From positions 97,678 to 161,677 of the forward strand of contig CAZBND010000002.1 of assembly GCA_964493415.1 (NCBI GenBank): a stretch of DNA of 64,000 nucleotides, in the 5' to 3' direction. The notes below the pieces were generated by a model. It was not told the origin of the DNA and made no database searches. It saw nothing but the letters and a program-made list of their open reading frames with translations. A program made the translations under genes and the position numbers. Positions 2,215 to 61,539 of this stretch are shown here, one piece after another. This stretch comes from an uncultured Planctomycetota bacterium (lineage in GTDB: Bacteria > Planctomycetota > DG-23 > CAZBND01). Numbering within the stretch: position 1 is the first letter of the stretch; each line of letters begins with the position of its first letter.

Positions 2215-3066
2215 ATGCAAATCTTGATTCTCAATGTCGCCGCCGCCCAGCTCAAAGCCGGTCTCCCCATCGCCTCTTACATTGACCGCATCTGCCGGCG
2301 TATCGCTGAGTGTGCTCAACAGCAAGTGGACCTGGTCGTCTTTCCCGAATGTTCGACCATCGGCTACGACCCTTCTATCATCAAGGGGAACGAGGACGAG
2401 ATACGCAGCGGCATCCGCTCCATCCGCCGTGCGGCGGCCCAGGCGGGATGCTACGCAGTAGTGGGAACGCCGACGTTCAGGGGAGGCAAGACGTACAACA
2501 GCGCGCTCCTGATAGACCCGGATGGGAACATCTCCTGCCGCTACGACAAGGTCCACATCTGGCCCGGCGGCGAAAGCCGCCATTTCGCTCCCGGTAAGAA
2601 GATCGCCTTCGCCCAAGTCAAAGGCGTTCCGGCTACCATGATCATCTGCGCCGACTTCTTCTACCCCGAGCTCACCAGACTTCCCGCCCTTCTTGGGGCC
2701 AGGCTGATTCTTCACCCCAGCGGCTGCTCTTCGCCCCCCGGCGGATTCAGCTTCATCGGAGAGATAGGCCGCCAGGGATTCCCGCACATCAGGGCCGTCG
2801 AGAACGAGGCCTTCTTCATCCATTCCGACTATTGCGGCTCGTACCGCGACGGCCGGCGCTATGCCAAGGGTGCCACGAAGATCATTCACCCCTGCGGCAC
2901 CACCATAGTCGCCGCCGCTCCGGACAAGGAGGACCTCATCACTGCCAGGATCGATACGGAAATTCCTGCCCCCATAAATGAGTTCAAGCAACGGATGCTG
3001 AAAACGTCGTTTCTTGCTCCCGTCTGGCGGAAGCTGTTGGCGGGGTCTTCGCGCTTTCTGACCTGA
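2215..3066 (+). CDS. carbon-nitrogen hydrolase (nitrilase superfamily)
   Basis: Catalytic triad motifs VVFPEC, YDKVH, ICADFFYPE; start moved to ATG 2215 behind GAGGAGG. Confidence 0.9.
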   Translation: MQILILNVAAAQLKAGLPIASYIDRICRRIAECAQQQVDLVVFPECSTIGYDPSIIKGNEDEIRSGIRSIRRAAAQAGCYAVVGTPTFRGGKTYNSALLIDPDGNISCRYDKVHIWPGGESRHFAPGKKIAFAQVKGVPATMIICADFFYPELTRLPALLGARLILHPSGCSSPPGGFSFIGEIGRQGFPHIRAVENEAFFIHSDYCGSYRDGRRYAKGATKIIHPCGTTIVAAAPDKEDLITARIDTEIPAPINEFKQRMLKTSFLAPVWRKLLAGSSRFLT

Positions 3067-3088
3067 ATGACGTCAATAGGGGGACGCC

Positions 3089-4366
3089 ATGCGGTTGCCG
3101 GCGATACTGGCTCTTGCAGTTGCGCTCACAGCTCTCACCGCCGGATTCGCGCAGCCTGAGCGAGCCACGCTCTCTTACGGCTTCCACGCCGGCGAAACGC
3201 TCGTGTACGAACTGAAAGAGCGGCGCACCGACCGTACCGGATCGTCCGCCGACACTACCGTGGCCCAGTCAACGCTGGAGATCGCGGCGGGAGAGAACCC
3301 GAGCGAGGCACCCGTTCTGTTGATCCAAAAACACCGCGTCGCCGGCAACGTTACGCCGCTGGAGGGCCTGAAAGCCCCCCTGAACTTTTTCCGTCTGCCT
3401 GAGGAAGGCATCTCATCGCTCCTCGCGGCGTATTTCCCTCCACTTCCTCATAGGCCCCTAGTGGCAGGAGATTCGTGGGATGCGCCGTTCGTACCTCCCT
3501 CTCTTGGGCGCATCAAGGTCACCGGCGACCCTCCGCGGGCGCGGTACTCATTGCTTCGGCTTGACCGGTCGGGCCCCGGGATGATAGCTCATCTGGCCGC
3601 GACCGCTGACCTGAATCTCACCGATGCCGTCTTCTCCGTTTCCGAACTTGGCCTCCGCAGGGCGACCTCAACTGCGGTAAGGATCGATCCCGGCACCCCC
3701 GCTTACCAGGCGGGGATCAGAACCGGAGATCGGATCATCAAAGTGCGCGGCAGGCCCGTTGCCACCTGGGAGGAAGCCGCGTCCGTGCAGAGCACCGGCC
3801 GATTGGCCGTGGAGATTCATCCGCCCTTGCGTGAGACCGACGCCGGCAAGGTCGTCAAGCGCGACTCCCATTACGTCTTCCGCATCTCCGAAGGGTTCGG
3901 GATCGAATCCGCGGGCATCTTCTCGCTCGACATCCCCGTCTCCGACGCCCAGGAAGTCATTGTTGGCGGCACTGAGGAGGATTCCCCCGCTGACAAAGCC
4001 GGCATTTCTCCCGGAGATACCATCGTTCGGCTGGGCGCAGTCGAGGTCGAAAGCTGGGGCGAACTCGAACAGCTCCTCAGCGCAGTCCCTCCCGGCACGC
4101 GGATTGAGGTCCAGCGGGTCCCTCTGGGCGAGCGCAATCCCGTCCCGACTTACGTCATTACCCGCGCGAGGGAACTCTACAGGTTCTCGGCCAGGGGAGC
4201 GTTCTCGGGGGACCTGCGCATCGATGTCGCATCGGGAACGCTCATCGAGGCCTCATGGGCGTGCCACGATCTCGTCGTCATCCCCACGTTCGGCGACCGG
4301 TCGTCTGAAATAACAACCGTCATCGAGAATACCTTGTCCCTAGTCGAACGCCGCCCGACTCGCTGA
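3089..4366 (+). CDS. secreted protein with two PDZ domains inserted in a DUF6263-like beta-rich domain
   Basis: Signal peptide MRLPAILALAVALTALTAGFA; PDZ motifs GTPAYQAGIRTGDRII and DSPADKAGISPGDTIV; no protease motif seen. Confidence 0.7.
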   Translation: MRLPAILALAVALTALTAGFAQPERATLSYGFHAGETLVYELKERRTDRTGSSADTTVAQSTLEIAAGENPSEAPVLLIQKHRVAGNVTPLEGLKAPLNFFRLPEEGISSLLAAYFPPLPHRPLVAGDSWDAPFVPPSLGRIKVTGDPPRARYSLLRLDRSGPGMIAHLAATADLNLTDAVFSVSELGLRRATSTAVRIDPGTPAYQAGIRTGDRIIKVRGRPVATWEEAASVQSTGRLAVEIHPPLRETDAGKVVKRDSHYVFRISEGFGIESAGIFSLDIPVSDAQEVIVGGTEEDSPADKAGISPGDTIVRLGAVEVESWGELEQLLSAVPPGTRIEVQRVPLGERNPVPTYVITRARELYRFSARGAFSGDLRIDVASGTLIEASWACHDLVVIPTFGDRSSEITTVIENTLSLVERRPTR

Positions 4367-4450: not shown

Positions 4451-5557
4451 ATGAAGGCCGATGTTTTCTTCATCGAAACCAAGCACGTGAACGACCGTAC
4501 ACTCAAGATGATTTTCGAGAAGCTTGCCATCCCCGAGCGCATTCCCAAGGGCGCTTCAGTAGCTCTCAAGCTGCACTTCGGAGAGATAGACAACTACACC
4601 CACCTCCGCCCGGACCTTGTCAAAAAGCTGGTCGACCTGCTGAAAGGGCAGAAGGCTCGTCCGTTTCTTACCGACACCAACACTCTCTACCGCCACCAGC
4701 GGTCCAACACCTTCGACCATCTCCGCACCGCCGCCGCCCACGGTTTTACATCCGAGTCGATGGGTTGTCCGATCATCATCGCCGACGGGCTCCGCAGTTG
4801 GGGCCGCACGGTGACTCTCGACTCTCCCTACCGCCTGAATGAAATCGAAGTCGCCCTTGGCATCGCCGACGCCGACGCCCTCATCACCCTCACGCACCTC
4901 ACCTTCCATCACGTCGTAGGTCTCGGAGGGGCTATCAAGAATCTCGCCATGGGCTGCGTGTGCCGCGGCACCAAGCTTCTCTGCCATGCGGTGCCAGGGG
5001 CAACCGTCAAGCTCAATCACGACCGCTGCATCGTCTGCGGTACCTGCGTGGAGATATGCCCCGGCAGCGCCTACGAGAAGGTCGAGGGAAAGATCGAGTT
5101 CTCGCCCGAGAAGTGTGTCGGCTGCGGCGACTGCATCCACCATTGTCCCGTCCAGGCCATCTCCCCGCGCTGGGACACCCCTCGCGGCGAAGTCCACAAG
5201 GGGCTCATCGACTCAGCCCGCGGCGTCCTTCAGGCGATGGAAGGCAAGCCCCTCTTCCATCTCATGGTGCTTATGGACGTGACCCTACAATGCGACTGCT
5301 GCCCCACCACCCAGAGGATCGTTCCCGACATCGGAATCCTCGGCTCCACGGATCCGGTGGCCCTTGATCGCGTCGCCCAGGACCTTCTCGCCCAGGCCCC
5401 TCCATCCCCCGGCGTCGCCGGAGCCGAAGGCACCGACAAGCTCCAGACCCATTACCCCGAAATCGACATGAATGCCTACTGGGGCTTCTGCACAGGAGCC
5501 CGCATCGGGACCACCAACTACAACCTCCAACCCATCGCCCCTCCCAGCCGCCGCTGA
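4451..5557 (+). CDS. DUF362 domain protein with two 4Fe-4S ferredoxin motifs
   Basis: KLHFGE, PFLTDTNTLY, CIVCGTCVEICP, CVGCGDCIHHCP, CDC; GGAG RBS; TATAAT at 4397-4402. Confidence 0.9.
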   Translation: MKADVFFIETKHVNDRTLKMIFEKLAIPERIPKGASVALKLHFGEIDNYTHLRPDLVKKLVDLLKGQKARPFLTDTNTLYRHQRSNTFDHLRTAAAHGFTSESMGCPIIIADGLRSWGRTVTLDSPYRLNEIEVALGIADADALITLTHLTFHHVVGLGGAIKNLAMGCVCRGTKLLCHAVPGATVKLNHDRCIVCGTCVEICPGSAYEKVEGKIEFSPEKCVGCGDCIHHCPVQAISPRWDTPRGEVHKGLIDSARGVLQAMEGKPLFHLMVLMDVTLQCDCCPTTQRIVPDIGILGSTDPVALDRVAQDLLAQAPPSPGVAGAEGTDKLQTHYPEIDMNAYWGFCTGARIGTTNYNLQPIAPPSRR

Positions 5558-13847: not shown

Positions 13848-13853
13848 GTTCCC

Positions 13854-14801
13854 TTGAGCGAACAGTCAGAACGCGTCATTGTGATTCCCGAGGGAGTCTC
13901 TCCGCGAGACCTTTTCGGAAGCCATGACGCACACCTCAAGCGTGTCCGCGACGCCATGGGCGTCCAGATCGTCGCTCGCGACGGAGTCATAAAGCTTATT
14001 GGAGACCCCAAGGGCGTGGACCGCGCAGGCAGCGTGCTTTCCGAACTCATTGCCGTCCTCCGTGACGAAGGGCGATTGCGCAGAGAACACGTCGATCTGG
14101 CGCTGGACGGAGCAAGCCAAGCCCCCACCAGAGGTGGAACACAGCGTATAATGGTCTTCAGGCGTGGCCGCTCGATACAGCCCAGGACCAAGGGCCAGCA
14201 GCAGTATGTCGAGGCCATTGACCGTAGCGACCTGACCTTCTGCATCGGGCCCGCAGGGACCGGCAAAACTTACCTCGCCGTCGCCAAAGCCGTGGACGCC
14301 CTGCGTGAAGAACGTGTTGACCGTATAGCTCTCGTTCGTCCCGCCGTCGAGGCGGGGGAGAAGCTGGGCTTCCTTCCCGGCGACCTCGAAGCCAAGGTCA
14401 ATCCCTACCTTCGTCCCCTCTACGACGCTCTTCATGATATGATGGATCCTAGCCAGATACGCCGCTCTATGGACAACGGAGTCATCGAAGTCATACCTCT
14501 CGCTTTCATGCGCGGGAGAACCTTGGGCAGATGTTTCGTCATCCTTGATGAAGCTCAAAACTGCACGATTCGACAGATGAAGATGTTCCTCACCCGGATA
14601 GGCTTGAGCTCCAAAGTGGTCGTCACGGGCGACGTAAGTCAGGGAGACCTGCCCGAGGGTGAAATGTCCGGCCTCATTCACGCAGAGAAAATACTCACGG
14701 ATATTAAAGGAATCGAATTCGTCTACCTCGACAAGGCCGACATAGTGCGGCATCCTCTCGTACAGCTAATCGTCGAGGCGTTCGAGCGCGACGGCAAGTA
14801 A
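13854..14801 (+). CDS. phoH: PhoH family ATPase (KH-PhoH, PhoL/YbeZ type)
   Basis: IGPAGTGKTYLA, RPAVEAGEKLGFLPGD, PLAFMRGRTL, LDEAQN. Confidence 0.95.
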   Translation: MSEQSERVIVIPEGVSPRDLFGSHDAHLKRVRDAMGVQIVARDGVIKLIGDPKGVDRAGSVLSELIAVLRDEGRLRREHVDLALDGASQAPTRGGTQRIMVFRRGRSIQPRTKGQQQYVEAIDRSDLTFCIGPAGTGKTYLAVAKAVDALREERVDRIALVRPAVEAGEKLGFLPGDLEAKVNPYLRPLYDALHDMMDPSQIRRSMDNGVIEVIPLAFMRGRTLGRCFVILDEAQNCTIRQMKMFLTRIGLSSKVVVTGDVSQGDLPEGEMSGLIHAEKILTDIKGIEFVYLDKADIVRHPLVQLIVEAFERDGK

Positions 14802-26925: not shown

Positions 26926-27498
26926 TTGGATCAGCAGAAGATCATCCGCGCCATCAGGCTTTTTCTCGAAGGCATCGGCGAGGATCCGAACCGCCCGGGG
27001 CTTAGGGACACTCCGCGCCGCGTCGCAAGGATGTGCGCCGAAATCTACGCCGGCATGTCGAAGAACGCTTCCGAGGAAATACGAGTCCTCGAGTCGCAGG
27101 GGCACGATGAAATCATCTTCGTCAGGGACATCCCCTTGTACTCCGTTTGTGAGCACCACCTTCTCCCCTTCATTGGAGTTGCCCATGTTGCATACATCCC
27201 GCACCGGGGACGGATTACGGGGCTCAGCAAGCTCGCTCGCGTCGTCGATTGCCACGCCAGGAAACCGCAGGTCCAGGAGCGCCTCACCACCGAGATCGCC
27301 GAGACCATCATGGAAGCCCTCGAACCCCGGGGCGTGCTCGTCATCATCGAGGCCGAACACCTCTGCATGACGATGCGTGGCGTAAGGAAGGCTGGCTCCC
27401 GCGCCACCACCTCCGTTGTCCGCGGGATTTTCCGCGAAAATCCCGCGACTCGCGCTGAAGCCATGTCCTTGCTTATGCGCAGGGGTCCAGGGAGCTGA
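26926..27498 (+). CDS. folE: GTP cyclohydrolase I
   Basis: [39 protein letters not shown]. Confidence 0.97.
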
Positions 27499-27590
27499 CT
27501 ATCACTTCCTTTCGAAGTCCCCGAAGCTCCTCGGCAGCGCCTGATGTTGGCTGTCCTTGCTTACGCTACGTCGACTGCGCCCCGGCATGG

Positions 27591-27610
27591 TTTACAACAG
27601 GTTATCCACA
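27591..27610 (+). promoter_or_regulatory. tandem DnaA boxes (left pair)
   Basis: Perfect TTATCCACA at 27602-27610; 2-mismatch TTTACAACA at 27591-27599, 11 bp upstream. Confidence 0.6.
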
Positions 27611-27623
27611 AGCTTTGAACGCC

Positions 27624-27810
27624 TCCAAACCGGCGTCCCCCGCTCAATATGTCCGCTCTACCAAGAGCCGTGCAGAGCGCCCGACTGCAGTGCGCAAGGC
27701 CTTGGCTGGAGGCGACTTCCGACGCAGAACAAAAGTGGCTCTTTGGTTCCGCCTCGAACGCAATGCGTTCTCGTGCCTGTTCATTCATGTCCGGCAGGAC
27801 CCCGTTTTGA
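27624..27810 (+). ncRNA. ssrS: 6S RNA candidate
   Basis: About 187 nt rod. Closing stem AAACCGGCGTCC (27627-38) with GGACCCCGTTT; ATATG/CATGT; inner stem CCAAGAGCC (27661-69) with GGCTCTTTGG (27737-46); 3' central-bubble hairpin CCTC-GAACGC-AAT-GCGTTC resembling E. coli 6S CCTTGAACC..GGTTC. No credible ORF here. Confidence 0.65.
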
Positions 27811-27824
27811 ACAACTTATCCACA
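27805..27824 (+). promoter_or_regulatory. tandem DnaA boxes (right pair)
   Basis: Perfect TTATCCACA at 27816-27824; 1-mismatch TTTTGAACA at 27805-27813, 11 bp upstream. Confidence 0.6.
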
Positions 27825-27858
27825 AAGGTCCTGGTACGCGGAGACAGCCTCACCCGTA

Positions 27859-27890
27859 TTGACACCACCCCCGCCCAGCAATTATCCTCA
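27859..27890 (+). promoter_or_regulatory. promoter of the ispG operon with overlapping DnaA-like box
   Basis: TTGACA (27859-64), 18 nt spacer, TATCCT (27883-88); TTATCCTCA (27882-90) is a 1-mismatch DnaA box over the -10. Confidence 0.55.
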
Positions 27891-27925
27891 ATGAGACCAA
27901 TCGTGGGGGATGGAAGGAGCTTGAT

Positions 27926-29026
<1,101 letters not shown>

Positions 29027-29027
29027 C

Positions 29028-30728
29028 ATGGCTTGGGACATCGTTGCTCATCTTGTTGCGCTGGGGCGCTTATCGGAGGAGGCGGCCGGCGAATTTGCTC
29101 GGAGATCCCGGGCCGAGGGAAAAGGCGCGGCAGAGCTGTTGATCGACGACGACGTTTTAGGCGAACCCGAACTCCTGGCCATTTACTCTGACGTCTTCGG
29201 GCTGCCGCTGGCCCAGCACCTTGACGCAGGATGTGTGCTTCCCGAATTCAGGGATCGCATTCCTCAATCATTTGCGCTGGCACACAGGTTTGTGGCCCTT
29301 AAGGGAACAGACGGGGCAAGGGAGGTCGCGGTCGCAGACCCCGCGGGTCTTCCTATCATAGACGATGTTGCGCGTCTTCTCGGTTGCGAGTTGGACCCCG
29401 TCTTCGCCCCCCGCACCCAAATCATCTCTCTCATCTCCGAGACGTACCAGCATCAGCCGGCCGAAATCGGCCAGGCTCTCAGAGACCTCGCCCAGGATGA
29501 GCTTGAACGTCTGGCGGTTGACGTCCGCGACGGTGAAGACCTCGTAGACGTGGCTTCCAAGCCCCCGGTCGTAAAGCTCGTCGATATGGTCCTTCTGAGA
29601 GCCATCCGGATGCGAGCGAGCGACGTGCACGTCCAGCCCTACGAGGACTCGCTCCAGGTGCGCTACCGTATAGATGGGGTCCTTTACGACGTGATGAATC
29701 CACCCAAAGGCGCGCAAGAGGCCATCATCTCCAGGATAAAGGTGATGGGGAAGATGGACATAGCCGAGCGCCGCATCCCGCAAGAGGGGCGCACCACGCT
29801 ACGCCTTGCCGACAGGGAAGTGGACGTCCGCATCTCCTGCGTTCCCACTTGCCACGGCGAGAGGGTCGTCATCCGCCTCCACGACAAGGGCCTCTCGCTC
29901 TTCGAACTCGAGGACCTCGGGATGCCCAAGCCCGCACTCGAGAAATTCCACAGCCTGATCCGTTCCTCCCACGGCGTCGTCTTCGTTACCGGGCCCACCG
30001 GCTGCGGCAAGACTACCACCCTTTACGCGGCCCTCAAACGCATCAACTCTCCGGATAAGAACATTATCACCATCGAGGATCCCATAGAGTATCGAATCCC
30101 TGGAATCAGCCAGATCGAAGAAGAGCCGAAAAAAGGTGTAACTTTCGCCTCCACGCTTCCCTACGTGCTTCGCCAGGACCCCGACGTAATCATGATCGGA
30201 GAGGTTCGCGACTATGACACCGCCCGCATTGCCATCCAGGCTTCGCTCACCGGTCATCTCGTCTTCAGCACCGCTCACACCAACGATTCCGCGACCGCGA
30301 TAACTCGCCTGCTGGATATCGGCATTGAGCCGTATCTGGTCTCGTCCTCCCTTTTGGCCATCATGGCCCAGCGGCTTGTTCGCACAATATGTCCCCGCTG
30401 CAAGGAAGAATACGCGCCGAGCGTCGAAGAGAAGCAGTCGCTCGGGGTGTCGCAGGGCGGAGAGTCCCTCAGGCGGCTCTGGCGCGGAGCCGGATGCCCG
30501 GACTGCCTGCAAACGGGCTATCTCGGCCGCACGGGAATATATGAATTGCTTATCATCGACGAAACCGTGCGCGAGCAGATAGCCTCAGGCGCTCGGGCCT
30601 CCGAGGTAAAGCGGCAAGCCGTCGCTCGCGGGCTGCGTACCCTCCGCTCCGACGCCATCGACAAGGTGCTCAACGGAGTCACCACGGGCGAGGAGCTTCA
30701 CCGCATGACGCAGATGGATGCCCTCTAA
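29028..30728 (+). CDS. gspE: type II secretion / pilus assembly ATPase GspE
   Basis: MshEN-like N-terminus, ASDVH, GPTGCGKTT, TIEDPIEY, RQDPDVIMIGEVRD, CPRC..CPDC; start corrected to ATG 29028. Confidence 0.95.
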   Translation: MAWDIVAHLVALGRLSEEAAGEFARRSRAEGKGAAELLIDDDVLGEPELLAIYSDVFGLPLAQHLDAGCVLPEFRDRIPQSFALAHRFVALKGTDGAREVAVADPAGLPIIDDVARLLGCELDPVFAPRTQIISLISETYQHQPAEIGQALRDLAQDELERLAVDVRDGEDLVDVASKPPVVKLVDMVLLRAIRMRASDVHVQPYEDSLQVRYRIDGVLYDVMNPPKGAQEAIISRIKVMGKMDIAERRIPQEGRTTLRLADREVDVRISCVPTCHGERVVIRLHDKGLSLFELEDLGMPKPALEKFHSLIRSSHGVVFVTGPTGCGKTTTLYAALKRINSPDKNIITIEDPIEYRIPGISQIEEEPKKGVTFASTLPYVLRQDPDVIMIGEVRDYDTARIAIQASLTGHLVFSTAHTNDSATAITRLLDIGIEPYLVSSSLLAIMAQRLVRTICPRCKEEYAPSVEEKQSLGVSQGGESLRRLWRGAGCPDCLQTGYLGRTGIYELLIIDETVREQIASGARASEVKRQAVARGLRTLRSDAIDKVLNGVTTGEELHRMTQMDAL

Positions 30729-31948
30729 TGGCGGTCTTCCAGTATCGCGCCCTCAGGGACAATGGCCAACAGGCGAGCGGCATAATTGCCGCCGAATCCA
30801 CTCGCGAGGCGAGAGAAAAGCTCCGCCAAAGCCGCCTTCATCCCAGCTCTGTCACCCCTCTCCAGGCGCAAGCTCGGGGCAAGGCCCGCAAGGCGCTCGG
30901 TTACCTCGCCCGTCCTCCCGGCATGGAGCACCTTGCCTCTTTCACACGCGAACTCGCCACATTGCTGCAAGCCGGGGTCCCTCTCGCCGATACCTTGGGA
31001 GCGTTGTCCCAACAGGCTTCCAGCAGACGTCTCCAGGCCGTAACCCTCGACCTTCGCGAACGAATCCTGCGCGGCGAATCGTTCTCTTTTGCCCTTTCAG
31101 CGCATCCCGACTGGTTCGACGACCTCTATGTGAGCGTAGTCGCCGCCGCTGAAGGCGGCGGCTCGCTCGACGCCTCGCTGGAACGCCTCGCCCGTTACGT
31201 CACCAGGAAGGAGCGCGTAAGATCCCGTGTCTCTGCGGCGCTTGCCTACCCCGTCGTAATGATCTCTGTCAGCATCTGCGTCCTGATCTTCCTGGTCGCT
31301 TATGTTGTCCCCAAGATTGTCAGCCTGTTCGACGACCCTTCCCTGCTGCCGGCTGCAACACGCGTTCTGATGGCAGTTAGCTCCTTCTTCGGGGCCTTTT
31401 GGCCGGCGATCATTGCGGCGCTTGTCCTCGCGTATGTCGGTTTCAGGCTCGGACTCAAAACACCCGCGGGCGCTCGCCTTGGTGACTTGATCCTACTCCG
31501 CCTCCCCCTTCTGGGGGAGTTGGTGAAGAGAGCCGCCATCGCGAGGTTCGCCATAACACTCTCGAGCTTGCTCCGCAGCGGTATCCCCGCGCACGAGGCC
31601 CTCTTGATCGTGAAGAGCGTTGTCGGCAACCGCGTGATCGCCGACGCCGTAGGCGAGATTCATCGCCAGGTCCTCGAAGGAAACCGGATGTCCGGCTCGA
31701 TGCAGGCATCTGACCTCTTCCCGCCCACGGTCGCACAGATGGTCGCGGTCGGAGAGGGCAGCGGGCGGCTCCCCGACCTCCTTGAACGAATCGCCGATGC
31801 CTACGACGAATACGTCGAGCTTCACACGCAGAAATTGACCTCTCTCATAGAGCCCGTTATCATTATCGTGATGGCCTTTGTCGTTGCCTACATAGTCCTC
31901 TCGGTGCTCTTGCCGATTCTCAGAATTGGAATGGCTGTAGGTGCTTGA
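30728..31948 (+). CDS. gspF: type II secretion inner membrane platform protein GspF
   Basis: FTRELATLLQAGVPL, ALAYP, VGEGSGRL, SLIEP. Confidence 0.95.
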   Translation: MAVFQYRALRDNGQQASGIIAAESTREAREKLRQSRLHPSSVTPLQAQARGKARKALGYLARPPGMEHLASFTRELATLLQAGVPLADTLGALSQQASSRRLQAVTLDLRERILRGESFSFALSAHPDWFDDLYVSVVAAAEGGGSLDASLERLARYVTRKERVRSRVSAALAYPVVMISVSICVLIFLVAYVVPKIVSLFDDPSLLPAATRVLMAVSSFFGAFWPAIIAALVLAYVGFRLGLKTPAGARLGDLILLRLPLLGELVKRAAIARFAITLSSLLRSGIPAHEALLIVKSVVGNRVIADAVGEIHRQVLEGNRMSGSMQASDLFPPTVAQMVAVGEGSGRLPDLLERIADAYDEYVELHTQKLTSLIEPVIIIVMAFVVAYIVLSVLLPILRIGMAVGA

Positions 31949-31951
31949 ACC

Positions 31952-32398
31952 ATGAAACCGCGTCAGTCAATCAAGGCTTTCACGCTCATAGAGCTCATTC
32001 TCGTCATCACCATACTCGGGCTGCTTGCGACCATGGTCGCCGTCAACATCATGCCGAGAAGCGCCGAGGCAAAACGCAACGCGGCGCTCGTCCAGATCGG
32101 CCACTTCAAGAACGCCCTTCAGCTCTTTCGCTTCGACAACGGCTTCTACCCCTCCACCGAACAGGGGCTCGAAGCGCTCGTCGAAAAGCCCGCCATCGGG
32201 CGCATCCCCTCCAAGTGGCCGGAGCAGGGCTATCTGGAGAGCCCCACTGTGCCCAGGGACCCTTGGCGCAATCCCTACGTGTACATCTCGCCAGGGCTCC
32301 ACGGTGAACCCTTCAACATCATCTCTTGCGGCGCTGACGGCGTGGAGGGCGGAGAAGGCGAGGACGCCGACATAACCAGTTGGCAGGTGGCGGAATGA
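31952..32398 (+). CDS. gspG: major pseudopilin GspG
   Basis: KA|FTLIEL, FRFDNGFYPSTEQGLEAL, DPWRNPYVY, GADGVEGGEGEDADI calcium loop. Confidence 0.95.
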   Translation: MKPRQSIKAFTLIELILVITILGLLATMVAVNIMPRSAEAKRNAALVQIGHFKNALQLFRFDNGFYPSTEQGLEALVEKPAIGRIPSKWPEQGYLESPTVPRDPWRNPYVYISPGLHGEPFNIISCGADGVEGGEGEDADITSWQVAE

Positions 32399-32904
32399 AA
32401 TCCCACGCGACGGCCCGGTCCTTCACGCTGATCGAACTCGTCATCGTCTTAGCCCTCCTGGGAATCTTCGCCTCCATCGTCGCTGTCAACGCCCAAGGCT
32501 TCGGCGCGAACGCAAAGCTCGATTCCGCCGCTCGAACGGCCTCCGACGTCATCGCGCTTGCGCGCAACGAAGCCCGTGTGAGCGGCCGCGTCTGGTCCAT
32601 ACAATACGAAGTCGGGGGCAGGGCCATAAAGCTCTTGCCGCCTGAGAGCGAGGAAGACCTCAGCACGTTCTTTCTTCCCCGTGGCGTTCAGCTCCGAGCC
32701 GCGATTCGCGGCTCTTTCCACCCGGATGGAAGCTGGGCGTCCGTGGAAGTCCGCCCCGACGGAGTGCTCACTCCGCACCGGATCTACATCGCAGACGATG
32801 CCGGAGGCGCGCGTACTATCTCGCCCAACCCCATCACCGGCGTCGCTACCATTTCCCAGGGCCTAACGGAGCCCAATCGCCATGTTTTACCATCCATCCA
32901 ATAG
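32395..32904 (+). CDS. gspH: minor pseudopilin GspH-like
   Basis: RS|FTLIELVIVL N-methylation motif; position after gspG; ATG 32395. Confidence 0.75.
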   Translation: MKSHATARSFTLIELVIVLALLGIFASIVAVNAQGFGANAKLDSAARTASDVIALARNEARVSGRVWSIQYEVGGRAIKLLPPESEEDLSTFFLPRGVQLRAAIRGSFHPDGSWASVEVRPDGVLTPHRIYIADDAGGARTISPNPITGVATISQGLTEPNRHVLPSIQ

Positions 32905-33259
32905 AGCCTTCACCCTCATAGAGGTCGTTGTGGCTGTCGGCCTCGTGGCAACCGTCATGATGGCGGTCTTGCGGGTGCGCGACGACGCGCTCACGCGTAA
33001 CTCCGACGCCGCCGACAAGCTCCTGGCTGCAGATGTGGCTGACGAGAAACTCGCGGAGCTGGCGAGCTTCGGCTTTCCCTTTTCTTATCAGACCGGCGGA
33101 AAGGTCCCTTTCCGCGGCGGATTTGTCTGGTCGCTTTCAGAAATCAGCAAATCGCATCCGACTATCGGGCATCTGCGTGAGTTACAGATCGTCGTCGAAC
33201 GGCCAGGAGCCGACTCGCCTTCCGCCCGTCTGTCGATCATCCTTCCTGTGGAGATCTGA
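32882..33259 (+). CDS. gspI: minor pseudopilin GspI-like
   Basis: RA|FTLIEVVVA, short, LAADVADEKLAEL. Confidence 0.7.
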   Translation: MFYHPSNRAFTLIEVVVAVGLVATVMMAVLRVRDDALTRNSDAADKLLAADVADEKLAELASFGFPFSYQTGGKVPFRGGFVWSLSEISKSHPTIGHLRELQIVVERPGADSPSARLSIILPVEI

Positions 33260-33261
33260 CC

Positions 33262-33882
33262 ATGCGCTCTCTGCGCGGCTTCACCTTGATAGAAGTCCTC
33301 ATGGCCTCGGCAATCGCCGCGCTCTTCGTGGGTCTGCTTGGTGCAACTCTCTCGGCGACTTTGCACGCCGACGAAATGATCAGGGCTCATTCCGAACTCG
33401 ACACGGAGGGCCGCGCTTTGCTGAGGATTATAGCTGCGGATGTCTCTGCTGCGATTTATCCGGCGGATAACATGGAAAGTTTTCTGGGAGAGGATTCGCT
33501 CAAAAGCGGCATGCCTGCCGACTCCATTCACCTGCTCAGTGCGTCTCAGCCGCTTCTAGCCGGCGCGCCCCCCTGCGAAGTGAGCTACATCCCGCGCGAA
33601 AGATCGGGTAGAATAACACTTGTGCGCCGGGAGGCATGGCCGGCCGACCGAAGGATCACCGTGGGTGGCACAGAGACAGAGATAGCCTCTTCTCTCGTTG
33701 CGCTCGATTTTCGGTACTTCGATGGCAGCGCCTGGCGGGATTCGTGGAGTGCCCAGTCTGAGGGTTACCTCCCAGTGGCGGTCCGTGCGGACGTGCGGCT
33801 TCTCCCCACCGAGGGAGTGGAGCCGCTGTCCTTCTCGGATGTTATTCTCGTGCTGTCCGGAGGCAAGCGGGAGACGAATTGA
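33262..33882 (+). CDS. gspJ: minor pseudopilin GspJ-like
   Basis: RG|FTLIEVL, LDFRYFDGSAWRDSW, LPVAVR. Confidence 0.75.
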   Translation: MRSLRGFTLIEVLMASAIAALFVGLLGATLSATLHADEMIRAHSELDTEGRALLRIIAADVSAAIYPADNMESFLGEDSLKSGMPADSIHLLSASQPLLAGAPPCEVSYIPRERSGRITLVRREAWPADRRITVGGTETEIASSLVALDFRYFDGSAWRDSWSAQSEGYLPVAVRADVRLLPTEGVEPLSFSDVILVLSGGKRETN

Positions 33883-35048
33883 TGGCACCCGCCCACAAAC
33901 GCAGGAGAGGGGTCGTCGTTCTCGGCTCCACGGGTTCCGTCGGTCGCAATACTCTGGACGTACTCAGAGCCCTCCAGTCAAGCTTCCGGGTAGTCGGTCT
34001 GTCGGCTAACAAGAGCTGGCAGACCCTTCTCGAGCAAATAGAGGAGTTTCAGCCGTCTCGCGTTGCTCTTGCCGACGGAGCGTCGGCTTGCAGCCTGGAG
34101 GGTGCTTCATTGCCGAATGGGATAAGTCTGATGCTCGGCAGGGGAGGGGTGGAAGAACTCGCCTCCGACCCCGACGCTGATTTCGTAGTCCTCGCCATAT
34201 CGGGCGGAGCCGCCATCCACGCCGCAGTTTCAGCCATTAAGGCCGGGAAGACACTGGGACTGGCAAACAAAGAAGTTCTCGTCATGGCCGGAGAGACCAT
34301 TGCTGAACTGGCCCATAGGCACGGGGCCAAGATCGTTCCCATCGACAGCGAGCACAATGCCATTCACCAGTTACTCAGGACCGGCCGTCGCACTGAGGTC
34401 AGGCGGATCATACTTACCGCCTCAGGCGGCCCATTCTATGACTGGCCCGATTCCAAGCTCCGCAAGGTCACCGTAGAAGAGGCGCTTCGCCATCCGACCT
34501 GGCGCATGGGACAGCAGATCACCATAAACTCCGCGACCATGATCAACAAGGCCATGGAAGTCGTGGAAGCCCACTGGCTCTTCGGACTCGATGCGGATCA
34601 GATCGAGATTCTCGTCCACCCGGAGGCGATCGTCCACTCGGTTGTCGAGTTTCGTGACGGCGCGTGCTTCGCGGTCATGGGACCGCCGGATATGCGCGTT
34701 CCCATCCAGTACGCGCTTACCGGCCCCCGCCGTGTCGCTGCGCCGCACATAGCCATGGATCTCGCCGAGATAGGCTCGCTCACTTTCAGAAAGCCTGACT
34801 TCGAGAAGTTCCCCGGCCTTTCATTGGGCTATGACGTCCTCAAGCGGGGCGGCACAAGTGGAGCCGTGCTCTGCGGAGCGAACGAGGCCGCCGTCAGAAA
34901 ATTCGTTGAGGGTGTAATAGAGTTTCCCGACATCGCAGCCCTTGTCAGGCGCGTCATGGACAAACACGCCCCCATCGGTCAACCCACCGTTGAGCAGATC
35001 GTCGCCGTCGGCAGGTGGAGCGCTCGCCAAGTGGAAAGGCTGGTGTGA
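33882..35048 (+). CDS. dxr: 1-deoxy-D-xylulose 5-phosphate reductoisomerase
   Basis: LGSTGSVG, LANKE, PIDSEH, LTASGGPF, HPTWRMG, NKAMEVVEA. Confidence 0.97.
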   Translation: MAPAHKRRRGVVVLGSTGSVGRNTLDVLRALQSSFRVVGLSANKSWQTLLEQIEEFQPSRVALADGASACSLEGASLPNGISLMLGRGGVEELASDPDADFVVLAISGGAAIHAAVSAIKAGKTLGLANKEVLVMAGETIAELAHRHGAKIVPIDSEHNAIHQLLRTGRRTEVRRIILTASGGPFYDWPDSKLRKVTVEEALRHPTWRMGQQITINSATMINKAMEVVEAHWLFGLDADQIEILVHPEAIVHSVVEFRDGACFAVMGPPDMRVPIQYALTGPRRVAAPHIAMDLAEIGSLTFRKPDFEKFPGLSLGYDVLKRGGTSGAVLCGANEAAVRKFVEGVIEFPDIAALVRRVMDKHAPIGQPTVEQIVAVGRWSARQVERLV

Positions 35049-36841
35049 CCGTGCCGGTCGACGTGATCCTGCGTATCGCGCAAGTCGTGCTGGGATTCAC
35101 TCTGCTCCTCCTCTTCCACGAGATGGGACACCTGATAGTCGGCCTCCTCGTCGGCGTTAAAGTGGAGCGCCTATCGATAGGGTTCGGCCCCAAGCTCTTT
35201 GGCTTCAAACGCCGCGGCACGGAGTACATCATCTCCGCCGTTCCAGCAGGTGGCTATGTGAAATTCAAGGGGGACGAACCGGGTTCGCCCGAGAGCAGAG
35301 AGCCCGACTCCTTCTGGGGTAAGGCCCCCGGCCCCCGTGCCCTGATCGTCATCGGCGGCGTGTTCATGAACATCGTCACCGGCGTCATCGCTTTCGCCAT
35401 CGCCTTCGGCATAGGAGTCAAGACCGAAAGCCCCGTCGTGGGCGGCGTGCTTCCCCACAGCCCGGCAGAAGCGGCCGGCTTCCTTCCCGGCGACAGGATT
35501 CTGTCCATCGATGGCAGAAAGGTCGCCGACTTCCAGGATGTCGCCTATGGCGTCGCCATGGCAGCCCGGGCGGAGCCGCTCGCAGTTGATGTCCGGCGTA
35601 ATGGCAGTCACGTGACCGTTGACGTAGTACCAGAGTTCGACGAGGCGCGAGGCATCCAGACGATAGGCATTCTCCCTCCGGCTAGCCTGACGATTGGAGC
35701 CCTCACCAAGGGTTCCGCCGCTGAGAACGCAGGATTGCGCGCGGGGGATGAGATTCTTTCCGTTGATGGCCGGCCCATCGAGAGTTGGGAGCAGTTCGAA
35801 CAGCTCGTGAAGGGCAATCCCGGAGAAACCCTTGCCATCACCGTCCGCCGCAAAGGGGGCACCGTCGATCTTGCAGTGGCCGTCGAGCCGGTCTATGAAT
35901 GGATTCTGGGCGTGGAGGGCTTCCCCCTGGTCCAGAAGGTCCTGCCCGGATCAGCGGCAGACCAAGCGGGCATTCTTGAGGGCGACATTCTCCTCGCGTT
36001 CGACAATACGGAAGTCGTGGGGGATTTGCTGCCCGAGCTGCTGGCCCACGGCGAGGGCAATCCTGCCCGCCTCTCGGTTCTTCGGGGAGGCCGCCAACTC
36101 CACCTCACCGTTACGCCGGCCCGCAGCGGCGACAGATGGCTCCTGGGTATCGTATATGTCCCGGCGACCCTCGTCGCAAGAGTGCACGAGGGCTCTCCCG
36201 CCGAGGAGCTCGGTATAGTTCCCGGCGATCACATAGTCTCCATAGAGGGCAAGCGCGTTACGAGCCTCAACGAGGCCGCCGTCGTTCTCCAGGATCGGAA
36301 AGACGCAGCTACTCGCATTCAGTGGGCTCGGCAACAGGAGGTAATCAGCTCGCAGTTCATACCGGAAAAGTCCGATGCCCCCGCGACAGGCATCCTCGGT
36401 GTTGTCCCGGAAGCCCAGTCAGAGGTGATCAGGCAAGGTTTCATCGGCGCGTGCAAGCTGGGTGTACTGAGGTCGATATTGACGGCCAAGCGGGCGGGAA
36501 TGACATTCTGGGCGCTCCTCACCCGTCAAGTCTCTCCTACCAACGTTGGCGGGCCGGTCCTTATTGGCCGCGTACTCTACCAAAGAGCCGGCCAGGGTCT
36601 GGCAAGGCTCATATACTTCTTCGGAATGATCAGCGTCCTGATCGCCATCCCCAACCTCCTTCCCCTCCCCGTTCTCGATGGTGGGCACCTCGTCATTCTT
36701 GCGGTAGAAAAGCTGAAGGGCTCACCCCTAAGCACCCGGGCTATGATGGTGTGGCAGTACTCCGGCATCGTTCTCATCGGCGTTATTTTCGTCCTGATCC
36801 TTGTAAACGACATTCACCAACTGTTTACCCTTACGTTCTAG
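35045..36841 (+). CDS. rseP: RIP metalloprotease RseP with four PDZ domains
   Basis: FHEMGH, GFGP, PAGGYV, GGPV, NLLPLPVLDGGH; four SP/SAA..AG...GD PDZ repeats. Confidence 0.93.
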   Translation: MTVPVDVILRIAQVVLGFTLLLLFHEMGHLIVGLLVGVKVERLSIGFGPKLFGFKRRGTEYIISAVPAGGYVKFKGDEPGSPESREPDSFWGKAPGPRALIVIGGVFMNIVTGVIAFAIAFGIGVKTESPVVGGVLPHSPAEAAGFLPGDRILSIDGRKVADFQDVAYGVAMAARAEPLAVDVRRNGSHVTVDVVPEFDEARGIQTIGILPPASLTIGALTKGSAAENAGLRAGDEILSVDGRPIESWEQFEQLVKGNPGETLAITVRRKGGTVDLAVAVEPVYEWILGVEGFPLVQKVLPGSAADQAGILEGDILLAFDNTEVVGDLLPELLAHGEGNPARLSVLRGGRQLHLTVTPARSGDRWLLGIVYVPATLVARVHEGSPAEELGIVPGDHIVSIEGKRVTSLNEAAVVLQDRKDAATRIQWARQQEVISSQFIPEKSDAPATGILGVVPEAQSEVIRQGFIGACKLGVLRSILTAKRAGMTFWALLTRQVSPTNVGGPVLIGRVLYQRAGQGLARLIYFFGMISVLIAIPNLLPLPVLDGGHLVILAVEKLKGSPLSTRAMMVWQYSGIVLIGVIFVLILVNDIHQLFTLTF

Positions 36842-46271: not shown

Positions 46272-47702
46272 TCACAACTGCCGTCGTGCGTGGACGTGCG
46301 CTTCGTCCGTTCCCACGTCTTCAAGGAACTTGACATACGTCTTATGAAGTCGCCTCGCCGCGTCCGTGTTCTTCGACAACACATTGAGGCTCTGGCGTGG
46401 ATCTTTGCGAATGTCATACAACTCTGGACTCGCTTCCCCGGGCTTCGCTATCTCCATGCGCCGTGCCCTGCTGTCGACCGCCGCCGTCTCCGCCATGCAC
46501 AGCTCCTCTCCGGCCTTACCCCCGTATATCAACGTCCACTCCGATGTCGATATCGTGCTCCGCACGAAGGGATTCGGCCCATGGGTGATGCAGGGAGACG
46601 ACACCGCGAAGCCCCTCACCGCTCGCTTCTCGCCCTTCAACACCGGCACCAATGAGGTGCCGTGGATCTCCGGAGGCTTTCTGATGCCGGCAAGCTCCAG
46701 CAGCGTCGGCGCGATATCCCATGGCTGCGCAAACCCCTTCACCCTTCGCCCGCCAGACTTCCCCGGCAATGACATAATCAGCGGGATGTCTGCCACCTCA
46801 CGGTACAGCGGCTCATACCTCATCCGCCCCTTGGCTATCCGAAGCTTCCCTATCATGCCGTGTTCGCCGTGGTAGAACCCGTGATCCGTGGTGAATATCA
46901 CCAGCGTGTTTTCAAAGAGCCCCAGGTCCTCTATCTTCTCCAGCAGCGACCCCACCCACCTGTCCACCAGACTCACCTCTCCGGCGTACAGCGCCCGCAC
47001 GTGCGCAAGCTCCTTTTTGGTCAAGTAGTCCGCGTCGCCGTAAATGGGATAGATAACCTCCTCGCCTTCGTATCCCTTCTCGTACAGTTCGAGGTAGTGC
47101 TTAGGCGGATCCCACGGTTCGTGCGGATCGAACGTGTCCACATAGAGGAAAAAGCTGTCCCGCTTGTAGTTCCGTTCCAGCCATCTCTTCGCTTCCCGCA
47201 TCGTTTGTGCGACGAAGTAATCCTCCTCGTACGCCCGATCTGAGACGTTGCGCAGATATTGCCCGACCACCCTTTCACCCGACCGCAGTTTCTCCGGCTT
47301 GCACGGAAACCTCACCTCTTCTGGATCCGTACGCAGGCGGTCGTTCTCCTGGCCCCGGATCCACTGCCACCCGTCAAACCCTCTGTCGAAGTTGTACCCC
47401 TGCTGGAGGATGTGCGGCGTGTCCGCCACCATCATGCTCGTGTATCCCTTCTCACGGAGCATCTCCGGCAGCACCACCTCATCACCTTGCAGCCTCCCCC
47501 AGTCCGTGTACGTGAAACTCGCTTTTCCTGTCAGAGTGTCACGCCGGTTGGGAACCGTCGGGAAAGACCCCGCATACGCCCCGTCGAACACCACGCTTCG
47601 TTTCGCAAATCTGTCCAGGTGCGGGGTCGAGATCCGCTTGTTTCCGTAGCAGCCAAGGTGGTCCTTTCTGAAAGTGTCCGCTATTATCAGAATGAAGTTC
47701 AT
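46272..47702 (-). CDS. sulfatase-like hydrolase with Thr at the nucleophile position
   Basis: ADTFRKDH, SFPTVPNRRDTLTG, FDPHEPWD, TTDHG. Confidence 0.85.
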   Translation of the reverse strand: MNFILIIADTFRKDHLGCYGNKRISTPHLDRFAKRSVVFDGAYAGSFPTVPNRRDTLTGKASFTYTDWGRLQGDEVVLPEMLREKGYTSMMVADTPHILQQGYNFDRGFDGWQWIRGQENDRLRTDPEEVRFPCKPEKLRSGERVVGQYLRNVSDRAYEEDYFVAQTMREAKRWLERNYKRDSFFLYVDTFDPHEPWDPPKHYLELYEKGYEGEEVIYPIYGDADYLTKKELAHVRALYAGEVSLVDRWVGSLLEKIEDLGLFENTLVIFTTDHGFYHGEHGMIGKLRIAKGRMRYEPLYREVADIPLIMSLPGKSGGRRVKGFAQPWDIAPTLLELAGIRKPPEIHGTSLVPVLKGEKRAVRGFAVSSPCITHGPNPFVRSTISTSEWTLIYGGKAGEELCMAETAAVDSRARRMEIAKPGEASPELYDIRKDPRQSLNVLSKNTDAARRLHKTYVKFLEDVGTDEAHVHARRQL

Positions 47703-47762
47703 CGCTTTCCTTTCCGACGCTTGTCACTCGACGCTGCCGCCTCGCCCCGCATCCACCGCCGA

Positions 47763-49789: not shown

Positions 49790-49846
49790 CGTCCCGCCGC
49801 CGCTAGCGTCGCCCGCCTGAACTCTCCGGGAACGAAAGGAGCACAA

Positions 49847-51253
49847 TTGAACGTCGTCTTCGTAATGATCGACACTCTGAGGGCCGACTACTGCGGTTGC
49901 TATGGCAGCTCGTGGGTCAAAACCCCCAACATCGACGCCTTCGCCCGCGAGAGCGTCGTCTTCGACCGCGCCTACCCCGAAAGCTGCCCCACGCTGCCCG
50001 TTCGACGCAGCGTCTTTTCGATGACCCGCTGCTTTCCCTTCGTCGACTGGCACACGCCCAAAGGCGCCTATCCTGTGATTCCAGGCTGGCAGGGACTTCG
50101 GGAAGAGGATGTGACTTTTCCCGAGTTGATGACCTTCGCCGGCTACCGCACCGCCATGTTCGCCGACACTTACCACATGGCGAAGCCGGGCATGAACTTC
50201 CATCGCTTCTTCAGCGTCTTCCGATGGATTCGCGGACAGGAAGCCGACAGATACGGCTACGGAGAGCTCCCTGCCGATTGCACGGTCGAAAAGTATATGC
50301 GTCCTGACCATCCCGCCGAGTCTGCCGAGCGCAAGAAAGACGCGATCAAGAACTACCTCCGCAACAATGGCGACCGCCGCACCGAAGAGGATTATTTCGC
50401 GCCCAAAGTCTTCGGACAGGCGATCCACTTCCTCGAAAACGAATACAACCGTAGCCCCTTCCTTCTCTACATCGATTCATTCGACCCCCACGAGCCCTGG
50501 GACCCGCCTCGCTGGTATCTCGATATGTACGACCCCGACTACAGGGGGACCGAGCTCATCTGGCACAACACCCCCGACTCTTCCATATACACGGAAGCTG
50601 AGGTTCGCCACATAAGATCCCTTTACGCCGCCGAAGTGACCATGGTCGACACTTGGTTCGGCAAGCTCATGGATAAGGTGAGGCAGCTTGGCATCCTCGA
50701 CGAGACCCTTGTGATCTTCATGGCCGACCACGGTACGGAGCTCGCCGAGCACGGAAGGATCGGCAAGAGCGCCGCGCCCTACCAGCACAACGTCCGGCTT
50801 CCCGCCATGATCCGTTTCCCCGACGGAACCGCCGCCGGAAAGCGCATCGACTCCCTCGTGATGAACTACGATTTCAGCCACACAATGCTCTCCTGGCTGG
50901 GCATCGACGCTCCCGACGGTGTCGATTCGGTCGACCTCATGCCTCTGATCAAGGGCGAGACCGACGAGCTCAGAGATCACGTCATCAACGCGTGGGGCCC
51001 AAGCGTCGGCGTCATCGAGGGGCCGTGGAGCCTCAACTGCACCGATCAGTTCGAGCCCAGCACGCTCTTCAACTTGGCCGACGACCCCACCGAGCAGTCT
51101 GACCTCAAAGCAAAAGCCCCCGACAAGGTCAAGCAGCTTACACGCCGCCTCGAAGAGCTTTACGAGGACCGTGGGCTCGAGAACTACTCCCTCGCGAAGC
51201 GACAGCGAGAGGTCGTCGCCCAGTCATCTCCGAGGAAGACAGTCGTGCTTTGA
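49847..51253 (+). CDS. sulfatase-like hydrolase with Thr at the nucleophile position
   Basis: IDTLRAD, ESCPTLPVRRS, FDPHEPWD, MADHG. Confidence 0.85.
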   Translation: MNVVFVMIDTLRADYCGCYGSSWVKTPNIDAFARESVVFDRAYPESCPTLPVRRSVFSMTRCFPFVDWHTPKGAYPVIPGWQGLREEDVTFPELMTFAGYRTAMFADTYHMAKPGMNFHRFFSVFRWIRGQEADRYGYGELPADCTVEKYMRPDHPAESAERKKDAIKNYLRNNGDRRTEEDYFAPKVFGQAIHFLENEYNRSPFLLYIDSFDPHEPWDPPRWYLDMYDPDYRGTELIWHNTPDSSIYTEAEVRHIRSLYAAEVTMVDTWFGKLMDKVRQLGILDETLVIFMADHGTELAEHGRIGKSAAPYQHNVRLPAMIRFPDGTAAGKRIDSLVMNYDFSHTMLSWLGIDAPDGVDSVDLMPLIKGETDELRDHVINAWGPSVGVIEGPWSLNCTDQFEPSTLFNLADDPTEQSDLKAKAPDKVKQLTRRLEELYEDRGLENYSLAKRQREVVAQSSPRKTVVL

Positions 51254-61336: not shown

Positions 61337-61539
61337 CTCGCACCCCTTCTTGGTCACAAGCATTTCAGACCCATCTGAACCACCGATTCTAATCTCCATC
61401 CGTGCCCTCCACAAGCGACTGCCCGCAGGCGTCTTCGCACACGTCCCGGCCCTGGGGCATTCGTTAGCCCGGTCGCGCACGCCTTGGAAGGGGAGGGGCT
61501 TCGTCATCGTCGCAGCCCCCGTCTTTTTTCAAAATTCCC

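Follow-up and report, generated by a model that had tools for sequence, protein, structure and literature searches.

Most work on DnaA-box clusters outside the replication origin has been done in a few model bacteria, Escherichia coli and Bacillus subtilis among them, and the promoters known to be regulated by DnaA include those of E. coli dnaA and nrdAB. DnaA-dependent regulation was also described for the gidAB-parAB promoter of Pseudomonas aeruginosa (PMC13438810). The DnaA-box clusters of B. subtilis are intergenic, and they both titrate DnaA and regulate the neighboring genes (PMC3245932). The E. coli datA locus is laid out as box 7, box 2, an IHF site and box 3, with the essential boxes sharing one direction, and the DARS core contains three boxes, of which box I runs opposite to boxes II and III and makes a head-to-head contact (PMC5742627). 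Within E. coli oriC, low-affinity sites spaced by 2 bp allow cooperative filling by DnaA (PMC6727663, reviewing Rozgaja et al. 2011).

The array described here lies between the folE and ispG genes of the window, by which is meant the whole 64-kb stretch of DNA that was analyzed. As judged from its sequence, the locus is best read as joining the known class of non-origin DnaA-box clusters and DnaA-controlled promoters. A probability of roughly 55% is given to the reading that it is a DnaA-box cluster outside oriC, most likely tuning the operon formed by ispG, type II secretion (T2SS) genes and dxr, with titration of DnaA as a rival or an added role.

Organization of the folE-ispG locus

The array is housed in a gap of 427 bp, and both flanking genes are on the + strand (Table 1). 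The folE gene is the last of the string ftsH-folP-cdaA-ybbR-pdxJ-folE, and ispG heads the downstream operon, whose genes gave Pfam matches to T2SSE, T2SSF, T2SSG, DXP reductoisomerase and Peptidase_M50. The intergenic gaps of this operon are 0-7 bp in the relatives, and the genes from gspE to dxr probably belong to the transcription unit of the predicted ispG promoter. The TTG start codon of ispG aligned in all lineages, and a GGAG-type ribosome-binding site was found 5' of it (window 27926; position 5001 in L081, L083 and L087).

Several other features of the region were recorded. The gspE, gspF and gspG genes and three minor pseudopilin genes are nested between the MEP genes ispG and dxr, with rseP next (window 27926-36838); this order was kept in the relatives with long enough contigs, namely L081 (5001-11092), L083 and L087, and a more distant relative, L090, has the order ispG-gspD-gspE-gspF. 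The 3'-terminal part of folE contains a perfect 12-nt inverted repeat with a 3-nt loop (CGCGGGATTTTC / GAAAATCCCGCG, window 27421-27447), about 50 nt ahead of the stop codon. The window also contains two sulfatase genes and two genes for PhoH-like ATPases, of which one is a fusion with a PIN domain. By FtsH, the closest named relatives were Planctomycetes/Planctomycetota metagenome-assembled genomes (56-65% identity), and these relatives, together with the sulfatases, are consistent with a Planctomycetota-like organism.

Table 1. Features of the folE-ispG locus and other annotated genes of the 64-kb window.
Feature	Position in window	Strand	Basis or remark
folE (GTP cyclohydrolase I)	26926..27498	+	Pfam PF01227, E=1.9e-71
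Weak box w1, TTTACAACA	27591..27599	+	3 mismatches to TTATCCACA; 11 bp upstream of S1
Strong box S1, TTATCCACA	27602..27610	+	perfect
Weak box w2, CTTTGAACG	27613..27621	+	very degenerate third 9-mer in 11-bp phase
Variable spacer between clusters	27622..27804	none	the "6S-like RNA" of the earlier note
Weak box w3, TTTTGAACA	27805..27813	+	3 mismatches; 11 bp upstream of S2
Strong box S2, TTATCCACA	27816..27824	+	perfect; 34 bp from its end to the -35 hexamer
-35 hexamer TTGACA of the predicted ispG-operon promoter	27859..27864	+	promoter scan; invariant in all lineages as TTGACACC
"Fifth box", TTATCCTCA	27882..27890	+	1 mismatch; holds -10 hexamer TATCCT (27883-27888)
ispG (GcpE)	27926..29026	+	Pfam PF04551, E=4e-126; heads downstream operon
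gspE, gspF, gspG, minor pseudopilins, dxr (then rseP)	29030..35045	+	Pfam matches given in the text; tightly packed
Sulfatase and PhoH-like genes	46275-47723, 49790-51250, 13848-14798, 60011-61528		window annotation

The earlier note had drawn attention to two perfect TTATCCACA boxes (27602 and 27816), each preceded, at a distance of exactly 11 bp, by a degenerate 9-mer (27591, TTTACAACA; 27805, TTTTGAACA), and both observations were verified. The perfect boxes are the sole copies of TTATCCACA in the 64 kb, where 0.13 copies are expected, and two or more copies were found in 0 of 100 shuffles. The w1-S1 and w3-S2 units form a 22-nt direct repeat, identical at 18 of 22 positions and 214 bp apart, and they are the only same-strand TTNNNNACA pairs in 11-bp phase within the window; a stricter phased-pair pattern gave 0 pairs in 200 Markov simulations. 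Frequent occurrence of similar clusters, which the earlier note had named as evidence against its proposal, was looked for within the 64-kb window, and the arrangement proved unique there.

An additional phased 9-mer, w2 at 27613, was recognized beyond the five boxes of the earlier note and is kept in the relatives. The layout of the array is weak-strong-weak (27591-27621) followed by weak-strong (27805-27824), with two perfect and three degenerate boxes within 234 bp. Every box is read on the + strand; the - strand of the locus showed none with two or fewer mismatches. The weak 9-mers differ from the consensus by 3-5 mismatches and are recognizable by their phasing and conservation alone. Taken singly, w1 and w3 are meaningless, and w2, the phasing of which is conserved, is without significance as a lone match.

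Promoter scanning predicted a sigma-70-type promoter downstream of S2, TTGACA-18-TATCCT, with 10 of 12 matches to the consensus. Each gap scanned had one such sigma-70-like promoter, at the orthologous position and with N17/18 spacing across the lineages, and this ispG promoter was the only one found in the gaps. An ECF-type or second sigma-70 promoter starting from the TTGAAC and TTTACA motifs inside the boxes was considered and rejected, as alignments inspected by eye revealed no conserved -10 partner.

The fifth DnaA box of the earlier note is indeed present as a one-mismatch 9-mer lying on the -10 element, but its standing as a DnaA box did not hold across the lineages. At the orthologous -10 hexamer, L081, L083 and L122 share the TATCCT of the window, and L087 and L097 have TATATT. 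Since TATATT is a better -10 hexamer and a worse DnaA box, the conservation of this 9-mer follows the -10 consensus and not the DnaA-box consensus. The fifth box is explained more simply as the -10 element of the conserved, predicted promoter of sigma-70 type, and in the three closer lineages it may have a dual role as -10 element and DnaA box.

The distance from the end of S2 to the -35 hexamer was 34, 34, 35, 36, 36 and 36 bp across the loci, while the distance between the two clusters ranged from 23 to about 190 nt. A fixed distance from S2 to the -35 hexamer combined with a free distance between the clusters points to coupling of the array with the promoter of the ispG operon.

Conservation of the array and occurrence of its unit in other bacteria

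For the profile of relatives, a contig search with IspG gave only matches of at most 50% identity, and a protein database gave three closer IspG clusters (76%, 75% and 66% identity). Locus L122, which is close to L083, was reached through FtsH, and L097 was reached through the motif scan described below. The comparison covered five deep lineages, represented by the window, L081, L083/L122, L087 and L097, with IspG identities to the window of 66-76% for L081, L083/L122 and L087 and a FolE identity of 80% for L097. The contigs of the relatives share the gene order ftsH-folP-cdaA-ybbR-pdxJ-folE, the gap, and ispG-gspE-gspF-gspG-pseudopilins-dxr, the part ending in folE being common to all of them. 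These contigs come from hypersaline or sediment samples.

In all five lineages, the gap contains the five 9-mers on the + strand, in 11-bp steps and in the order weak-strong-weak, spacer, weak-strong. In the multiple alignment, 30 of the 45 columns in the five 9-mers were invariant versus 12 of 279 columns elsewhere in the gap (Fisher p=1e-21), and the promoter hexamers had 10 invariant columns out of 12. Judged by this alignment, the box array is clearly under purifying selection. Absence of the boxes from relatives, which the earlier note had regarded as telling against it, was not what was found, the boxes being strongly conserved in five diverged lineages.

The orthologs of w1 are TTACCAACA, TTTCCAACA, TTATCAACA and TTGCGAACA, with TT....AACA invariant across the five lineages. 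S1 is perfect in four of the five lineages and reads TTATTGACA in L087, and w2 reads TTTTGAACA in L081, TCTTGAACG in L083, TTTCCAACA in L087 and TTTTCAACA in L097. The orthologs of w3 are TTATGAACA, TTTTGAACA, TTACGAACA and TTACGAACA, and those of S2 are TTATCCCCA, TTATCCACA, TTACGCACA and TTATGCACA. Position 5 of the strong boxes, at which the classical TTATNCACA consensus has an N, varies among C, G and T.

Locus L081 has seven co-oriented boxes (4687-4898), the extra ones being TTATCCACC at 4721, in a 12-bp step, and TTATTCACA at 4779, within the spacer, so that the number of boxes differs among lineages. The more distant IspG relatives (at most 56% identity: L089, L090 and L092) have neither the synteny nor the boxes, and the array is therefore clade-specific.

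A metagenome scan for AACANNTTATCCACANNYYTYSAAC identified 25 loci, from which 18 non-redundant matches were analyzed; the matches include the orthologous loci L097 and L120. The weak-strong-weak triple, with the syntax TTnnnAACA nn TTATCCACA nn yTTTCAACA, was found between dnaA and dnaN (L105 1639-1663), about 170 bp upstream of dnaA (L110 2135-2159), upstream of a class I nrdA gene for ribonucleotide reductase (L118 3633-3657), upstream of a parA-type gene (L100 3031-3055) and, three times, upstream of lepA (L101, L106 and L121). Positions left free by the search pattern were also box-like: 14 of the 18 matches had an A following the third AAC (p=4e-5), and 13 had a T at position -4. The metagenomic hosts are unrelated bacteria with GC contents of 31-61%. 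Because the triple recurs in unrelated bacteria at classical targets of DnaA (dnaA-dnaN, dnaA, nrdA and parA), the weak-strong(-weak) unit looks like a recurrent syntax of DnaA arrays across bacteria.

The survey yielded further observations. Repeated 22-bp weak-strong units were seen in L105, L108 and L116. Contig L102, of 57% GC, carries beside a fumarase gene an intergenic, A-rich stretch longer than 500 bp (about 3064-3680 on the reverse strand), in which two perfect TTATCCACA boxes are separated by 208 bp. This stretch resembles an origin or a large DnaA locus, and the organism is unrelated. In L104 (7239-9334), the triple lies at the contig end, just 3' of a gspE-type ATPase gene whose product is 44% identical to the GspE of the window.

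Proposed mechanism and alternative explanations

The proposed mechanism starts from binding of DnaA at the array, which we infer from boxes scored by the classical consensus, a consensus that is possibly not that of the host DnaA. Domain IV of DnaA would dock on each of the perfect TTATCCACA boxes, S1 and S2, and the 2-bp spacing would let neighboring DnaA molecules, with a preference for DnaA-ATP, cooperatively occupy the degenerate sites alongside, giving a trimer on one cluster and a dimer on the other. The promoter-proximal cluster has its fixed position 34-36 bp upstream of the -35 hexamer (about -71 to -90 relative to the likely start site), and occupancy by DnaA would modulate transcription of the ispG-gspEFG-pseudopilin-dxr genes according to the DnaA and replication status of the cell. 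The cooperativity and any effect on transcription are suggested by the arrangement of the sites. Because the sites are upstream of the core promoter and not over it, and because the -10 hexamer is weak, we lean toward activation or fine-tuning as the effect on the operon. No DnaA link to ispG or to T2SS genes was described in the literature searched, in which the lone co-mention of a DnaA box and ispG was incidental.

An alternative is that the array is a titration or inactivation locus, which would exist mainly to time initiation by sequestering DnaA or altering its nucleotide state, with any effect on ispG being incidental. In most lineages, 270-300 bp separate the distal cluster from the start site. 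This is too far for simple control of the promoter, which speaks against the preferred reading and for titration. Furthermore, the intergenic site, with its co-oriented boxes in the order of a low-affinity box next to a high-affinity box, a spacer and a high-affinity box, echoes datA (PMC5742627), and the intergenic clusters of B. subtilis offer a precedent for combining titration with control of the neighbors (PMC3245932). However, no IHF consensus was found in the spacer of any lineage, the sole match (L087) overlapping a box, and the spacing of 23 to about 190 nt differs from that of datA, which is reported to be optimized. The two consensus boxes are also far below the number in typical titration clusters, and the conserved quantity is the distance to the promoter. 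Titration as the primary function is accordingly considered unlikely, although it is the strongest of the competing explanations.

It is less probable still that the array is the operator of another protein, such as a response regulator of the OmpR/PhoB type acting on the 11-bp-phased direct repeats, with no more than a resemblance to DnaA boxes. Direct repeats with an 11-bp period are also a signature of OmpR/PhoB-type response regulators, and this periodicity fits, as does the specific SAACA core of the weak units, which is not random degeneracy. Against such an operator, the exact canonical 9-bp DnaA box occupies 6 of 10 strong positions in the five lineages, and one more strong position (TTATGCACA) conforms to TTATNCACA, its change falling on the N. 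In addition, the occurrence of the composite at dnaA-dnaN, dnaA, nrdA and parA in unrelated bacteria of 31-60% GC fits a universal factor and not a lineage-specific regulator.

A cluster of co-oriented, closely spaced DnaA boxes might also be taken for a chromosomal oriC, possibly a bipartite one, and the earlier note had considered an origin interrupted by a 6S gene. The same note had seen neither an AT-rich unwinding element nor a skew flip, and our computational analysis gave the same result. GC skew over 10 kb was -0.053 to the left of the site and -0.058 to the right, cumulative GC skew dropped monotonically across the 64 kb with no switch, and genes have the same direction on both flanks. 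No AT-rich unwinding element was found next to the boxes, the 40-mers of lowest GC in each gap (35-42%) being the box clusters themselves, and there were no DnaA-trio runs of three or more in the four gaps tested; in contrast, the control origin L105, identified by Pfam as dnaA-gap-dnaN, has TAGTAGTAGTAG DnaA-trios and a stretch of 17.5% GC. In L087 the clusters are too close together to accommodate an unwinding element. None of dnaA, dnaN, gidA, parAB and rpmH was among the annotated ORFs of at least 150 aa in the 64 kb, and no reading frame of the window showed a DnaA signature. An oriC does not strictly require such marker genes next to it, and in some phyla the origin can be far from dnaA (PMC4755523). 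The origin explanation has a very small probability. With no skew switch, unwinding element, DnaA-trios or marker genes, the interrupted origin of the earlier note was abandoned, and the folE-ispG site is not an origin.

A separate observation concerns strand bias. Everywhere in the window the + strand has a negative GC skew (-0.02 to -0.19), yet nearly all genes between 7 and 44 kb are on the + strand. Either this co-oriented block is on the lagging strand, or the skew of this lineage is unusual.

The spacer was examined for the 6S-like RNA that the earlier note had placed between the boxes. Rfam searches gave no match at the gathering score, nor at E<=10, in an 801-nt piece of the window, and no match at E<=5 in the gaps of three relatives. 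Single-sequence fold z-scores for the two strands were -1.2 and -1.0, the RNAalifold consensus of three spacers was -4.2 kcal/mol over about 200 nt, and neither approach revealed a conserved rod-like structure with a central bubble and covariation. No promoter or terminator for the spacer was found in any lineage scanned. The spacer could not be aligned between lineages whose flanking boxes are invariant, and it is about 190 nt in four of the five lineages and 23 nt in L087, L088 and L095. A 6S-like RNA gene bracketed by DnaA boxes (about 27611-27804) is therefore the least probable explanation, its near-negligible chance resting on the 6S-like length in four of five lineages and on the absence of an evident protein gene from the stretch. 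Since there is no conserved RNA gene in the spacer, the coupling between 6S RNA and DnaA suggested in the earlier note falls with it. The regulatory or datA-like locus proposed there stands in part: the array is unique in the 64 kb and conserved in five lineages, but the 6S arm of the proposed switch, having no RNA, does not survive.

Two other candidates were rejected. A coding function of the gap was considered because of a stop-free frame (27459-27926) and ORFs at 27615-27929 (+) and 27561-27788 (-), and it was discarded as the spacer is unconserved and largely gone in L087. Direct repeats of a mobile element around an insertion were discarded because both copies of the repeat persist in L087, 23 nt apart.

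Implications and comparison with known systems

The preferred reading, a non-origin DnaA-box cluster beside the ispG promoter, presents a small cluster of strict syntax under clear purifying selection in an uncultured lineage. If DnaA binds it, the array is a candidate for connecting the replication status of the cell to envelope biogenesis, through isoprenoid precursors and the type II secretion pseudopilus. The recurring weak-strong-weak syntax could sharpen the prediction of DnaA targets genome-wide. Two wrong readings, the origin split by a 6S gene and the 6S-DnaA coupling, have also been removed. More tentatively, and with less than even odds, the 22-bp unit (TTnnSAACA-nn-TTATCCACA-nn) may be a portable DnaA-oligomer module used across phyla, in origins and at promoters, which here would couple the ispG/dxr/T2SS-pseudopilus envelope operon to DnaA-ATP status or would serve as the datA counterpart of this lineage. 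If so, it would constitute a DnaA-regulon link not described so far.

Among the known systems, 6S RNA (ssrS; Rfam RF00013 and related families) resembles the locus in approximate spacer length alone; a covariance-model match, conserved structure, sequence conservation and transcription signals are all absent from the spacer. DARS1 and DARS2 of E. coli are likewise small non-coding clusters of about three DnaA boxes outside oriC, but the array has no inverted box, every box pointing in the same direction.

The low-affinity arrays of E. coli oriC are similar in their 2-bp gaps, single orientation and high-affinity anchor. The array differs from them in being outside an origin, in having two to three sites in each cluster, and in having no unwinding element, DnaA-trio or IHF site.

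With E. coli datA, the array shares its intergenic position downstream of an operon and its co-oriented boxes, in which a low-affinity site abuts a high-affinity site and a spacer separates these from a second high-affinity box. Unlike datA, it has no IHF consensus (WATCAANNNNTTR was absent from the spacers) and no conserved spacer length, and the distance that is conserved is the one to the promoter. A functional analogy with datA could hold if another bending protein substitutes for IHF.

Like the DnaA-regulated promoters, the locus has its boxes just upstream of a predicted sigma-70 promoter, and the triple is also found near metagenomic dnaA, nrdA and parA genes. The difference is in the target, here an operon of the MEP pathway and the type II secretion pseudopilus, which is unreported as DnaA-controlled in the literature searched.

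In its setting, the array resembles the known clusters outside oriC, including those of B. subtilis (PMC3245932). It is much smaller than these, with two consensus and three degenerate boxes, and it is distinguished by its strict weak-strong 22-bp unit and by its ispG and T2SS neighbors. Like them, it is intergenic, away from the origin and beside a promoter, and it plausibly acts both as a regulator and as a sink for DnaA.
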